A DNA stretch of 64,000 bases from Eledone cirrhosa (Eukaryota). Within the stretch, counting starts at the first letter, position 1, and the number at the start of each line of letters is the position of its first letter. Location of the stretch: contig OZ024748.1 in the NCBI GenBank assembly GCA_964016885.1, positions 38,130,001 through 38,194,000 on the forward strand, written 5' to 3'. The notes under the pieces were generated by a model. That model saw only the letters and a list, made by a program, of their open reading frames with translations, ran no database searches and was not told the origin of the DNA. Positions 3,461-39,235 of this stretch are shown in pieces. Both the position numbers and the translations under genes were made by a program.

Positions 3461-3523
3461 AGGCAATTCCTTACCAGTGGTTTCTTAAAGCAAAAAGCTT
3501 TGCTTTCATCATCAGAAAATCCT
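3461..3523 (-). ncRNA. Putative minimal type I hammerhead ribozyme (HHR-A)
   Basis: Minus strand: AGGAUUUU-CUGAUGA(3515-3509)-U-G-AAAGCAAA-gcuu-UUUGCUUU-A-A-GAAA(3484-3481)-CCACUGG-U-A-AGGAAUUGCCU. The core is intact, stem III is the near-palindrome ACCACUGGU and the triplet is GUA. Stem I is weak (G-U rich). Confidence 0.7.
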
Positions 3524-3611
3524 GGTGTATTATTGATATTGATTCTAAAACAAAAATGCAATCTATATGAAGAGGTGAGGCTGAGAAGGAAGGAAGGAAC
3601 ATAAAATAAAA

Positions 3612-4026
3612 ACACACATGCAAACACACACACACACACACACAATCTATACATACACACATATATATATATACATACACACATATATACACACACACAT
3701 ATACACATATATATGTGTATATATATACATACACATACATATACACATACATAGATACACACATAAATATCAACATATCCATACATACAACCACACACAT
3801 ATATCCATATATACATAGAAATATAAATATATATATATATGCATACACACACACATACATAGCCATACACACATACATATACATACATACATACATACAT
3901 ACATACACACAATCATACGTATATACACACGTACATACATATATATATATATATATATATATATATATATATATATATATATATATATATATATATATAT
4001 ATATATATATATATATATATATATAT
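3612..4026. repeat. Mixed (CA)/(CATA)/(TA)n low-complexity tract ending in pure (TA)n
   Basis: Directly visible; 3755-3947 is the left arm of an inverted duplication. Confidence 0.93.
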
Positions 4027-4354
4027 ACGATATTAATAAATGGAAACTATATTTATAAAACCATATTTATTTCATTATACATATTTCAGGGATACCAAAT
4101 TAAATTACGGTATGCCTTCATCAGACAAAATACAATATATAACAGTTTTACAAATAGGCTTTGACGTACCCTTTTAAAATGCAACCATTATTTTTGGAAG
4201 CCATGGCTTCCAAAAATGAAATAAATATGGTTTTATAAATATAGTTTCCATTTATTAATATCGTATATCTACTCCAAATACTTGTCGAGTGCTTTATATC
4301 AGTTATAAAAATATTTACTTGTTGTATCCCAACAATTTTAAATAGAACTTTTGC
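4023..4354. mobile_element. Penelope pLTR/retrozyme-like element, family B copy 1 (inverted 5' part + forward 3' part)
   Basis: Perfect 54-bp inverted repeat (4023-4076 vs 4215-4268), hammerhead on the minus strand and a 28-bp palindrome at the junction (4190-4217). Flanked by (TA)n on both sides, with homologues at 4987-5081 and 37899-38144. Confidence 0.68.
4068..4132 (-). ncRNA. Putative minimal type I hammerhead ribozyme (HHR-B)
   Basis: Minus strand: UAUUUUGU-CUGAUGA(4124-4118)-AGGCAUACC-guaauuuaauuu-GGUAUCCCU-GAAA(4087-4084)-UAUGUA-U-A-AUGAAAUA. Stem I has 8 bp, stem II has one C-C mismatch and stem III is the quasi-palindrome AUAUGUAU. Predicted cut is between 4076 and 4075. Confidence 0.8.
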
Positions 4355-4404
4355 ATATATATATATATATATATATATATATATATATATATATATATAT
4401 ATAT
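4355..4404. repeat. (TA)n microsatellite
   Basis: Pure TA run separating two hammerhead-bearing elements. Confidence 0.97.
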
Positions 4405-4480
4405 GTAGGAGGTGAGTTTTATGTTGATTTAAAACTGAACTATCCACAAGTGTTTTTTAATCTTTATATCATGTCTTCCC

Positions 4481-4549
4481 GTTTTATCTGATGAAAACAC
4501 AAATATTATTGCATGATGATATTTGTTTTTGAAATGCGCATAATAAAAT
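4481..4549 (+). ncRNA. Putative minimal type I hammerhead ribozyme (HHR-C)
   Basis: GUUUUAU(4481-87)-CUGAUGA(4488-94)-16-position stem II with one mismatch and a GCAU loop (4495-4530)-GAAA(4531-34)-UGCGCA-U-A(4542)-AUAAAAU(4543-49). Stem III is the perfect palindrome AUGCGCAU. Confidence 0.85.
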
Positions 4550-4840
4550 ACATGGAACTCTTTTAACCATCTTTTGTTCTTATATATTATATATATATGT
4601 ATGTACGTGTGTATATATGTATGATTGTGTGTATGTATGTATGTATATGTATGTGTGTATGGCTATGTATGTGTATGTGTATGCATATATATATATATAT
4701 TTATATTTATATATATATATGTATATATATGTGTGTGGTTGTATGTATGGATATGTTGATATTTATGTGTGTATGTATGTGTATATCTATGTGTATGTAT
4801 GTATGTATACATACATGTATATATATATATATATATATAT

Positions 4841-4986
4841 GTGTGTGTGTGTGTGTGTGTGTGTGTGTGTGTGCGCGCGCGCGCGTGTGTGTGTGTGTGT
4901 GTGTGTGTGTGTGTGTGTGTGTGTGTGTGTGTGTGTGTGTGTGTGTGTGTGTGTGTGTGTGTGTGTGTGTGTGTGTGTGTGTGTGT
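4841..4986. repeat. (GT)n with embedded (GC)6
   Basis: Perfect purine-pyrimidine alternation; GC block at 4873-4884. Confidence 0.97.
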
Positions 4987-5081
4987 GCAGAGGTTATATT
5001 TAATTTGTTGGGATTCAACAAGCTTAAAAATTGTTATAACTGATATAAAGCACTCAACTATTTAGTGGAGTAAATACACAA
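4987..5081 (-). mobile_element. Family B 3' fragment (copy 2), abutting the satellite
   Basis: Reverse complement TATTTACTCCACTAAATAGTTGAGTGCTTTATATCAGTTATAAC...CCCAACAAATTAAATATAACCTCTGC aligns with ~4265-4354 and ~38055-38144. Confidence 0.75.
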
Positions 5082-5129
5082 TATATATATATATAGCCTC
5101 TAGCTACAGCATAGCTGGTCGTTAGCTGG

Positions 5130-37505: not shown

Positions 37506-37605
37506 TTTGAACAATTGTTTATACACGGATCAGAAGTCTGATATCAGAAGTGAAGGCCTGTAGGATGTTGTTATTGCCAGTACATGGAACTTGGCTCTAG
37601 TTGTT

Positions 37606-37657
37606 GAGTCATCTCATGAGCCTGAGAGAAACAGGCGAAACTCCACAGTAACAACTC
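37606..37657 (+). ncRNA. Degenerate type I hammerhead ribozyme (HHR-D), probably inactive
   Basis: GAGUCAU-CUCAUGA(G5 to C)-GCCUG-agagaaa-CAGGC-GAAA-CUCCACAG-U-A-ACAACUC. Stem I is restored to GAGUCGU/ACGACUC by reversing two CpG-to-CpA changes. Confidence 0.7.
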
Positions 37658-37738
37658 TCACTATATATCCTAGCCTTAATAAAATGAATATTTCAACTCT
37701 ACCTCCGTATTGAGTACTCTTTTCTCTCCGTCGTCAAC

Positions 37739-37898
37739 TATATATATATATATATATATATATATATATATATATATATATATATATATATACATATATA
37801 TATACATATATATATATATATATATATATATATATATATATATATATATATATATATACTGGTACGCTTATATATATATATATATATATATATATATA
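37739..37898. repeat. (TA)n microsatellite containing a duplicated CTGGTACGCTT
   Basis: CTGGTACGCTT occurs at 37859-37869 and again at 37899-37909. Confidence 0.93.
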
Positions 37899-38144
37899 CT
37901 GGTACGCTTTCATCAGATAAAATACAAAGTTTGTTTCATAAATAGAGACATACTCATGAAAATCATACCCATGAAAAGCATACCTTATTGGTCGGAAATT
38001 CACTGGATTTATATGTTTTATAAATATAGTTTCCCTTTATTTAATATCATTGAATATTTACTCCATTAAACTGTTGAGTGCTCTAAATCAGTTATAAACA
38101 TTTATGTTTGTCTGACTTCCAACAAATTAAATACCACTTCTTCT
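37899..38144. mobile_element. Family B copy 3 (diverged), with a truncated hammerhead on the minus strand
   Basis: GGTACGCTTTCATCAGATAAAATACAA and ATGTTTTATAAATATAGTTTCC...GTTGAGTGCTCTAAATCAGTTATAAA...CCAACAAATTAAATA are collinear with 4109-4354. The minus-strand CUGAUGA at 37916-37910 is cut off within stem II by (TA)n. Confidence 0.75.
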
Positions 38145-38319
38145 TATATATATATATATTTGCTTGGCCTTTATAACTTATGTTTATTGCTCTGGTCTTT
38201 ATTGGTACATGGAGCGCTTGCCAGCTTAAATCGGATATTGCGTTTCAGTTTGTTTTCGATGACAGCAGAAATTCGATCTCGCTGAAATTATATTTGTATA
38301 TATATATATATATATATAT

Positions 38320-38646
38320 AATATTATAAAAAGGAATAATAGATACAATATACCTATTTTTAACTTTCGTCCCGACTGCACAGTTTCGCTGCAAAAATGT
38401 TATATCATAGATATGTAACATTGTTGTGAGGTAAGCCAGCTTATCAAGAGAGCACCTCAGGTATCTATTATTCCTTTTTATAATATTTTACATAACTCTG
38501 ATATTGTGTCAATTTAATTATTTCGATTATTTTGTCTCTCATAATCATAGAGTAACACTGGTTAAGGTTGACAACACACAATCTCACATACTTGTGAAAA
38601 ATGTGTATTTATATATACATGTATGTATACACATATATTTGTATAC
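38320..38646. mobile_element. Penelope pLTR/retrozyme-like element, family E, rearranged copy
   Basis: 38320-38460 is the reverse complement of ~38918-39067, and 38461-38646 is a direct copy of ~39041-39232. A 27-bp overlap appears as an inverted repeat (38320-38346 vs 38461-38487). Confidence 0.8.
38370..38451 (-). ncRNA. Putative U3-A8 variant hammerhead ribozyme (HHR-E2)
   Basis: Minus strand: UCUC-UUGAUAA-GCUG...CAGC-GAAA-CUGUGCAG-U-C-GGGA. Confidence 0.68.
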
Positions 38647-38776
38647 CTCTCATTATTGTCTCTAACTCCCTCACGGTAGAGTAACCACGGAAGTATAGTG
38701 ACTGCTTTCAAGCAAACACTATATACACTTCTAGTCAACCTTACCATCCTTCTGTACCCTATGTATCATATCAATA

Positions 38777-38892
38777 TCTCCCTCCGCCTTCTGAGATATT
38801 TTCACTGCTACAAGGGATTAATCCCCTTTCTTGACCGGTGTATCACGTGATAGAGTCTCCCTCCGCCTTTCTGAGATTTTCTCGCATGCTAC
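38777..38892. repeat. Imperfect ~36-bp direct repeat pair (79-bp spacing)
   Basis: TCTCCCTCCGCCTT(T)CTGAGAT...TGCTAC at 38777-38811 and 38856-38892. Confidence 0.85.
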
Positions 38893-38917
38893 GGACGTAT
38901 GTAGTTAGGGCTCTTCA

Positions 38918-39235
38918 CTGAGGTGCTCTCTTGATAAGCTGGCTTAGCTCAAAACAATATTACATATCTATGATATAACATTTTTGCATAGTGACCAGCG
39001 AAACTGTACAGTCGGGACTAAAGAAAAAAATAGGTATATTGTATCTATTATTCCTTTTTATAATATTTTACATAACTCTGATATTGTGTCAATTTAATTA
39101 TTTTGATTATCTTGTCTCTCATAATCATAGAACAACACTGGTTAAGGTCGACAACATACAATCTCATATACTTGTGAAAAATGTATGTTTATATATACAT
39201 GTATATGTATGTATGCACATATATCTGTATACTTC
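38918..39235 (+). mobile_element. Penelope pLTR/retrozyme-like element, family E, collinear copy
   Basis: Contains the hammerhead at 38927-39017 followed by ~220 bp of AT-rich 3' sequence ending in (TA)n. Highly similar to 38320-38646. Its 5' limit may extend further left. Confidence 0.72.
38927..39017 (+). ncRNA. Putative U3-A8 variant minimal hammerhead ribozyme (HHR-E1)
   Basis: UCUC-UUGAUAA(38931-37)-GCUGG-[52-nt insert]-CCAGC-GAAA(39000-03)-CUGUACAG-U-C(39013)-GGGA. Stem III is the perfect palindrome ACUGUACAGU and the triplet is the canonical GUC. Confidence 0.75.

Follow-up and report, generated by a model that had tools for sequence, protein, structure and literature searches.

The window analysed here is a 64,000-nt stretch of the Eledone cirrhosa genome (G000:C8:38130001-38194000; genome size 3.0 Gb), and the elements in question are the hammerhead ribozyme (HHR) motifs in its non-satellite DNA. 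Around 56-57 kb of the window is TGGT-type satellite, and the non-satellite islands, which are rich in (TA)n, lie at positions 1-5126 and 37500-40165. A sequence-only reading of the window had reported six type I HHR folds and one half-fold, all seven of which were found on the strands and at the positions listed below. They are of type I, as claimed, but not strictly minimal, with a helix III region of 8-10 nt in all of them. Of the folds described as complete, those of family A, family B and both of family C are intact, whereas those of family E (G5C, broken stem I) and family D (damaged stem I) are not. The suggestion of about five lineages held, since five multicopy families, here called A to E, were found. 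Downstream of the HHR, every family ends at one of two fixed 3′ positions, a short end and a long ("tail") end, and at both of them the element adjoins (TA)n. The features of the islands, with 3′ untranslated region abbreviated as 3′ UTR, are as follows.

3432..3975, minus strand: family D arm comprising microsatellite-rich 3′ UTR, HHR and the short 3′ end, which abuts (TA)n
3461-3523, minus strand: family D HHR, core 3516-3510, stem I damaged
4028..4215, minus strand: family A short-ended arm, intact HHR 4068-4132, core 4124-4118, predicted cut after 4076
4215..4354, plus strand: inverted partner arm of family A, with the long (tail) end adjoining (TA)n
4405..4419, minus strand: inverted partner arm of family B, the last 15 nt of the tail
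4420..4587, plus strand: family B short-ended arm, intact HHR 4481-4549, core 4488-4494, predicted cut after 4542
4590..4980, plus strand: inverted partner arm of family D, microsatellite-like 3′ UTR only, HHR end missing (moderate certainty)
4986..5092, minus strand: older family A tail fragment (79%), adjoining the satellite
37500..40165, no strand: island, forming the right flank of the TGGT-type array and present in a second copy 27.8 kb away
37600..37738, plus strand: family E copy, from damaged HHR 37606-37657 to the long end, then (TA)n
37899..37945, minus strand: 5′ half-HHR of a family A subfamily, comprising a stem I strand, CUGAUGA and a stem II strand and truncated by (TA)n
38011..38139, plus strand: long-ended partner arm of the A subfamily, same insertion as 37899..37945 (78%)
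38313..38458, minus strand: family C short-ended arm, U3-A8 HHR 38370-38451, 9-nt deletion in stem II
38461..39244, plus strand: family C long-ended arm, 580-nt non-coding monomer plus partial repeat (1.35 copies; direct repeat spacing 580)
38927-39017, plus strand: HHR of the family C long arm, U3-A8, predicted cut after 39013

The two C folds in the window are the two arms of a single insertion. The A and B insertions are nested in (TA)n between the two D arms, which match each other at 77% over 3656-3941 and 4588-4873 in a low-complexity alignment. On this alignment, the "simple repeats" at 3612-3940 and 4590-4980 are thus explained as two arms of one D insertion. The B arm begins at the 5′ stop hot spot of its family, which is a likely transcription start, and intact relatives of the half-HHR at 37899 with the same stem II occur elsewhere in the genome.

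A descriptor scan recovered five of the seven motifs, at 4124 (minus), 4488 (plus), 37613 (plus), 38447 (minus) and 38931 (plus). The family A fold at 4124 has a CUGAUGA core, a stem I of 8 bp, stem III AUAUGUAU and an AUA triplet, while the family B fold at 4488 combines the CUGAUGA core with a stem I of 7 bp and stem III AUGCGCAU. Both C folds (38447 and 38931) carry the core UUGAUAA, stem III ACUGU[G/A]CAGU and GUC. The E fold at 37613 has the core CUCAUGA (G5C) and a broken stem I, although the core of family E as a whole is CUGAUGA. In the D motif at 3461-3523, the core and stem III ACCACUGGU are present, and the descriptor misses it because stem I bases have been lost on both strands relative to other family D members. 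The half-motif at 37899-37924 was not recovered by the descriptor scan. Thus, the A, B and D cores are canonical, the C core is U3-A8, and the window copy of E fails where its family passes.

Genome-wide searches showed that each unit is multicopy and dispersed over many chromosomes. The first-look candidates, which are not copy numbers, amounted to 1535 for A, 728 for B, 1055 for C, 140 for D and 224 for E, with top-copy identities of 90-96, 95-99, 91-95, 78-84 and 78-86%, respectively. The two fixed ends are spaced approximately 88 nt apart in A and in B, 170 nt in C, 68 nt in D and 58 nt in E. The sequence-only reading had noted that the stems differ between elements yet keep pairing, and this was borne out by a C relative at 70% identity that keeps U3-A8 with a different perfect palindrome in stem III, as well as by stem II of family A, in which six of eight pairs change on both sides (0 of 500 shuffles reached the covariation score). 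In that alignment, 97.4% of the cells were paired, a percentage inflated by the preselection of its 16 variants with the descriptor. Among BLAST-found copies (44-108 per family A-D), the ten core positions diverged by 0.5-0.9%, compared with 3.6-8.8% at neighbouring positions, and the ribozyme core appears to be kept by selection in the spreading lineages. Stem III is palindromic in four of the five families, as had been proposed, but not in E. Its predicted intermolecular duplex has an energy of -10.5 kcal/mol in B, -13.4 in C and -8.2 in D, while the corresponding hairpins reach +4.7, +1.5 and +0.4. The intact HHRs of A, B and C would probably be catalytically active in tandem.

Families A, B and D run upstream into open reading frames (ORFs) of Penelope-like elements (PLEs) of the Hydra type, which encode a reverse transcriptase (RT) and a GIY-YIG endonuclease. 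In family B, the locus L266 comprises, in this order, (TA)n, an inverted tail, a 5′ UTR, an open 799-aa ORF, a 0.87-kb 3′ UTR, the HHR and (TA)n. The head-to-tail order is 3′ UTR, HHR, short end, tail, 5′ UTR and ORF; the tail end runs directly into the 5′ UTR in 24 of 30 loci found by the 5′ UTR, with an HHR core upstream in 17. Among eight extended loci, three have open frames of 798-800 aa and three have two HHRs 3.33-3.86 kb apart. Complete copies, in which the ORF is flanked on both sides by pseudo-long terminal repeats (pLTRs), exist elsewhere in the genome. The single B ORF encodes the RT followed by the C-terminal GIY-YIG endonuclease, with the motifs DKT, YRDD, CxCX5C, CxxC..E and N..CxH and without CCHH, as judged by eye; DKT is at position 123 in all eight loci. 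The CxCX5C linker reads CNCPIKNKC in B, CNCRNKSNC in A and CSCRKPDEC in D, each with the C-terminal motifs. Thirteen relatives were found at 33-38% identity, eight of them with PF26215, a label for a PLE-associated helical domain.

In family A, a Hydra-type endonuclease lies 1.56-1.62 kb upstream of the HHR, across an interval that is 90-93% identical, in seven of seven loci, which were chosen because the endonuclease had already shown there. In family D, it lies upstream on the same strand in seven of ten loci picked for long shared upstream DNA, and an eighth endonuclease hit belongs to another family. In both families, the endonuclease ends upstream of the HHR and the RT is in broken pieces. 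The 3′ UTR is 1.6 kb long in A and consists of 1.8-2.5 kb of TG/TA microsatellite-like DNA in D (L181-L190), so part of the "simple repeat" content of this genome would be PLE-spread. Tandem pLTRs were seen in B only, and inverted 5′-truncated copies with a tail at one end were observed. The random sample described below contained 20 A, 17 B and 11 D arms per 590 kb, which extrapolates to tens of thousands of arms genome-wide for each family. Membership in the Naiad PLEs was ruled out, with the endonuclease being C-terminal and the HHR canonical.

The motifs in the window are thus very probably HHR-bearing pLTR ends of five families, with A, B and D being truncated coding Hydra-type PLEs. The explanation as a whole, which adds that family C is mobilised by a PLE protein and that inverted insertions arise by double priming of one RNA, as discussed below, was assigned a probability of roughly 0.8. 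Several results weigh against it. The RWK motif reads RWI in B (six of eight loci), a Pfam scan of the 799-aa B ORF gave nothing, and the Hydra-clade placement of A, B and D follows from motifs and not from a tree. Taken singly, the motif copies do not fold more stably than shuffled sequences (z -1.4 to +0.8), the core of family E is little conserved (7.9 vs 10.9%), and the stem III duplex is weak in A (-2.2 kcal/mol) and absent in E. A search for the element driving C found none, and none of the 57 E copies that had 1.4 kb or more of upstream sequence could be tied to an ORF. RWK itself is present in another family of this genome (L006).

The structure of the inverted insertions follows a strict rule. 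After duplicates from overlapping loci had been removed, 58 of 61 pairs that had not been selected by end type combined one short and one long end, with 30.5 expected if the ends were independent, and over all pairs the proportion was 134 of 144. In 43 of 58 unselected pairs, the two arms cover a common part of the element. Among 35 unselected A and B pairs with an explained span, the short-ended arm extends further 5′ in 24 and the long-ended arm in 3, with 8 ties. Junctions at the 5′ side do not pile up at the predicted cleavage site (1 of 38 in B and 5 of 84 in A within 2 nt), and the copied RNA seems to be mostly uncut. In family B, the 5′ stops of 31 of 40 truncated copies fall within 5 nt of one another, approximately 69 nt upstream of the core. 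Sixteen of the B copies start at the same A, and 10 of these have a preceding G where the template has C, which suggests that at the 5′ stop the RT may have run off an RNA whose capped start lies in the upstream pLTR.

Because of this mixed-end rule, together with the two start sites and two-strand priming described for the PLE PAc (PMC11167929), one uncleaved RNA primed twice is the simplest model for the inverted insertions, and it is the one we slightly favour. In this model, the GIY-YIG domain would nick both strands of a (TA)n tract, and, on a single uncleaved RNA, one of the nicks would prime synthesis from the short site while the second would use the long site. The short-primed copy would usually be made first, followed by the long-primed copy, which would displace it. 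Priming in the upstream pLTR would run off the capped 5′ end after approximately 170-190 nt, and such run-off would account for most copies, including B and probably A in the window, being solo pLTRs. The HHR would most likely trim or circularise tandem transcripts as a stem III-paired dimer, most plausibly in family C. Some observations speak against the model. The long-ended arm reaches further in 3 unselected pairs (10 when selected pairs are included), in some cases by more than 1 kb, and like ends occur in 10 of 144 pairs, with 15 more pairs excluded for an unclassifiable end. Furthermore, 10 of the 16 B copies starting at the same A came from loci found by a query starting there (five of the six others have the G), and some extra-G cases may derive from the inverted arm.

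Alternatively, each arm might have an RNA template of its own, the two RNAs being joined in a dimer, for instance by the palindromic stem III or by a protein dimer, with the asymmetry of the complex forcing one short and one long start. Such a dimer would agree with the overlap of the arms and with the pairs whose long-ended arm reaches further, with stem III duplexes in B, C and D that are predicted to be stable (-8 to -13 kcal/mol) where the hairpins are not, and with the predicted dimerisation of the PLE protein (PMC11167929). However, it needs an extra rule to account for the mixed ends of 58 of 61 pairs, for the short-ended arm leading in 24 pairs against 3, and for the 8 ties, and family E, which has no palindrome, follows the mixed-end rule in 11 of 12 classed pairs. 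We therefore consider copying from two RNAs unlikely, if the best of the alternatives, and retain double priming of one uncleaved RNA.

The sequence-only reading had placed the motifs in (TA)n, where they were indeed found, and had also described them as accumulating at satellite borders, which did not hold, as their density is at the genome background. The background was estimated from 59 stretches of 10 kb (590 kb) at round coordinates, in which canonical or U3-A8 cores were counted; one-mismatch cores were excluded, as shuffles give equal numbers of these. This sample contained 57 hits, or approximately one HHR per 10 kb, a few of which look like false positives, while shuffling the first 20 stretches left 0.8 hits per 200 kb. 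The extrapolated genome-wide load is 2.9 × 10^5 HHRs (bootstrap 1.9-3.9 × 10^5). The whole window has 4 hits against 6.2 expected. The 7.8 kb of non-satellite DNA in the islands holds 4 intact cores against 0.75 expected per base (P = 0.007), and the neighbouring 40 kb are also HHR-rich, both of which would suit a special sink at satellite borders. Counted per (TA)n tract, however, the 4 cores compare with 1.9 expected (P = 0.12), 4 of the 59 random stretches hold at least 4 hits, and two of the four cores belong to one insertion. Moreover, the island at 37.5-40.2 kb recurs 27.8 kb downstream (from G000:C8:38195339 on) and there runs into unique DNA, and is thus the duplicated, ordinary right flank of the array. 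A border sink is accordingly improbable, and the cluster of HHRs in the window is ordinary transposon debris at genome-background density.

The duplication comprises the island (second copy at G000:C8:38195339-38198000) and approximately 2.5 kb of the preceding satellite, is 100% identical except for (TA)n length, and represents either an unequal exchange in the very recent past or a duplicate introduced by the assembly. The satellite itself (5127-37500 and 40165-64000) consists of TGGT/TGGA units, is strongly strand-skewed, has higher periods of 51-55 nt, and ends near window-equivalent position 65,300. The island ends at 40138-40165 with GTAGCAACGC...CTAG directly before the satellite, preceded by CCTA/TCTA repeats, with a possible resemblance to a Helitron 3′ end. 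A 1.3-kb AAC/AGT triplet array at 234-1505 grades into CCA repeats.

The proposed link to PLEs and retrozymes was upheld on both sides, with A, B and D tied to PLE ORFs and C being retrozyme-like. Family C has natural periods of 583, 590 and 593 nt at three loci, with one type I HHR per monomer, longest ATG frames of 29 and 61 aa, and no tblastn match to the B protein. The circular fold of the monomer gave z-scores of -4.4 to -6.7, compared with -0.7, +0.2 and -2.2 for control stretches and -4.1 for the antisense strand. All 38 distinct C ribozymes have U3-A8, and their stem III is a 10-bp palindrome. As a non-coding, tandem and strongly folded predicted circle, C fits the description of a retrozyme and is likely mobilised by a Hydra-type PLE protein. 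Family E appears as an old family in which the shared UTR could be traced for approximately 400 nt before the upstream walk was lost in a microsatellite. A candidate ORF for E in L225 and L278 was rejected, as it belongs to another HHR family.

The sequence-only reading had taken all five families for short non-autonomous ribozyme elements, or retrozymes. This description fits C and possibly E, and the many short A and B copies with common 5′ stops include some that could spread as mini-elements. A, B and D, however, continue into RT/GIY-YIG ORFs with colinear UTRs, and the B tail leads into the 5′ UTR of the ORF and not back to a short unit. As a general claim, the retrozyme interpretation was consequently refuted, and we regard it as even more doubtful than the border sink.

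Several observations concern C and other ribozyme-bearing repeats of the genome. A tRNA-type short interspersed element (SINE; approximately 92 hits per 590 kb) lies at the long end of C in 5 of 30 loci, in sense orientation. At these loci (L003, L010, L019, L022 and L024), the 3′ junction is the same in four and the 5′ junctions differ, which points to either a hot target or a SINE-carrying subfamily; loose ends at window position 38652 were noted alongside these junctions. Where a SINE sits inside C, the period increases to 742 or 966 nt. Family C, including its short end and its junction with the SINE, also occurs in contigs of unrecorded kind from runs X1 and X3, which may derive from the sample of the assembly itself and are not taken as independent support. 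The U3-A8 core was also found in at least three further HHR clusters (L180, L291, L152, L271, L279), and a frequent one among them (stem III ACCGGU) gave no convincing ORF link in 17 copies. Head-to-tail HHR arrays of retrozyme-like units occur at L160:8273-9856 and L269:5762-8675, with periods of 466 and 310 nt, and one of them lies 10-12 kb to the left of the window.

Chance folding was assessed in 2,996 island bases against 1000 dinucleotide shuffles. Five hits were obtained, far above the shuffle mean of 0.06 (maximum 2; 0 of 1000 reached 5), and canonical cores alone gave 2 hits vs 0.00, the latter being the fair figure since the relaxed cores had been written after the motifs were seen. 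In Rfam, none of the 55 matches at E ≤ 1 was to Hammerhead_1, and a weak Hammerhead_3 match was found at 37603-37646 (30.1 bits vs a gathering threshold of 48.5). These weak scores, the unremarkable folding of single copies and the equal frequency of one-mismatch cores in real random DNA and shuffles (6 against 5.0 per 200 kb) are all that favours chance folds in AT-rich DNA, which are refuted by the shuffles, the multicopy families, the covariation and the core conservation and have a practically negligible likelihood.

Taken together, a fuller scenario can be sketched, albeit tentatively and with somewhat less than even confidence. The approximately 3 × 10^5 HHRs would have been spread by intact Hydra-clade PLEs, whose dimeric RT-endonuclease would prime both (TA)n strands at two fixed sites of one capped, uncleaved RNA, giving the inverted one-tail structure and the solo pLTRs, with the U3-A8 circle of C riding along. 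Since family B is young (95-99%), has open frames and uses a simple AT target, it offers a Hydra-clade system for studying inverted one-tailed insertion and the role of the hammerhead, both of which PMC8557442 and PMC11167929 leave as open questions. The pairing rule, the arm order and the cap-like junction give sharp predictions for such work. Core conservation ten times above neighbouring sites suggests that the ribozyme matters in vivo, though it was dispensable in the single in vitro PLE assay. If there are 2-4 × 10^5 motifs, HHR-bearing PLE ends would be a major and probably mis-annotated repeat class in this genome.

Among known systems, families A, B and D are closest to the Hydra clade as defined by Craig et al. 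(2021, PMC8557442), in which Hydra-1_Obim is listed as carrying an HHR and preferring (TA)n, and in which the tail is frequently confined to one end. The likeness includes the single ORF with RT and C-terminal GIY-YIG, the DKT and CxCX5C motifs, CxxC/CxH around E and N, and the lack of CCHH. It extends to a canonical type I HHR near the 3′ end with a helix III region of 8-10 nt, as in the canonical HHRs listed for Hydra PLEs, and to (TA)n targets, partial tandems, inverted 5′-truncated copies and the one-end tail. By contrast, the HHR listed for Hydra-1_Obim in its supplement matches none of the five HHRs, the B unit measures 3.3-3.9 kb vs the "<3 kb" described, and the tails are 58-170 nt long vs 30-40. 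In addition, few families were described outside cnidarians, whereas the sampled DNA contained at least 19 multi-member HHR clusters, only three of which are tied to Hydra ORFs.

The PLE of the Poseidon clade from Anolis, PAc, resembles these families in its two internal RT start sites bounding the tail, the priming of both strands, the uncleaved template, and the position of the tail at the pLTR-ORF junction (Frangieh et al., 2024, PMC11167929). The junctions without a cleavage-site pile-up agree with its uncleaved template. PAc belongs to another clade, and its assay showed no strand difference in the start site and left aside the pairing of ends, which is strict here; its ORF starts inside the HHR, while the B ORF starts approximately 270 nt after the core. 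As many as 9,000 dispersed and opposite-strand PLE HHRs have been reported in a single genome (Cervera and de la Pena, 2014, PMC4209133), and U3-A8 is a natural active HHR variant (PMC3088659; PMC4209133). The PLE minimal HHRs, with the U3-A8 variant of Schistosoma Cercyon, share the dispersed single motifs, the opposite-strand pairs 100-700 bp apart, the palindromic stem III and the U3-A8 covariation (PMC4209133), but the helix III regions found here comprise 8-10 nt, and U3-A8 is a fixed feature of the non-coding family C that recurs in at least three other clusters.

Family C shares with the animal non-LTR retrozymes, whose invertebrate circles measure approximately 170-400 nt (Cervera and de la Pena, 2020, PMC7229834), the non-coding head-to-tail unit, the single type I HHR per monomer, the low GC content and the self-paired predicted circle. 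It differs in its length of 585 nt, in U3-A8 and the 10-bp palindromic stem III, and in occurring mostly as dispersed 1-1.5-mers, with inverted arms of the PLE type and ends fixed at two positions. A consensus range of 51-972 nt has been reported and a derivation of retrozymes from PLEs proposed (Li et al., 2026, bioRxiv 10.64898/2026.07.22.740005).

In one octopus, 31 recently active Penelope-like families were described, with no mention of ribozymes in the main text (PMC13282606), and the repeat library of that study may already hold the present families. The suspicion that these families were undescribed held within the literature searched, in which no account of the families, the load or the pairing rule was found, with most subscription papers and Repbase/Dfam outside the search. 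Published HHR counts range from approximately 5,000 in the mussel to as many as 120,000 in the axolotl (PMC7229834), the largest count that we found, and the load extrapolated here (approximately 3 × 10^5) exceeds the latter in a genome ten times smaller. Hydra PLEs with HHRs in (TA)n, including one from an octopus, were already known; the families described here are new Hydra-clade PLE families and one new retrozyme-like unit, and what is new about them is their load and the strict pairing of their ends.

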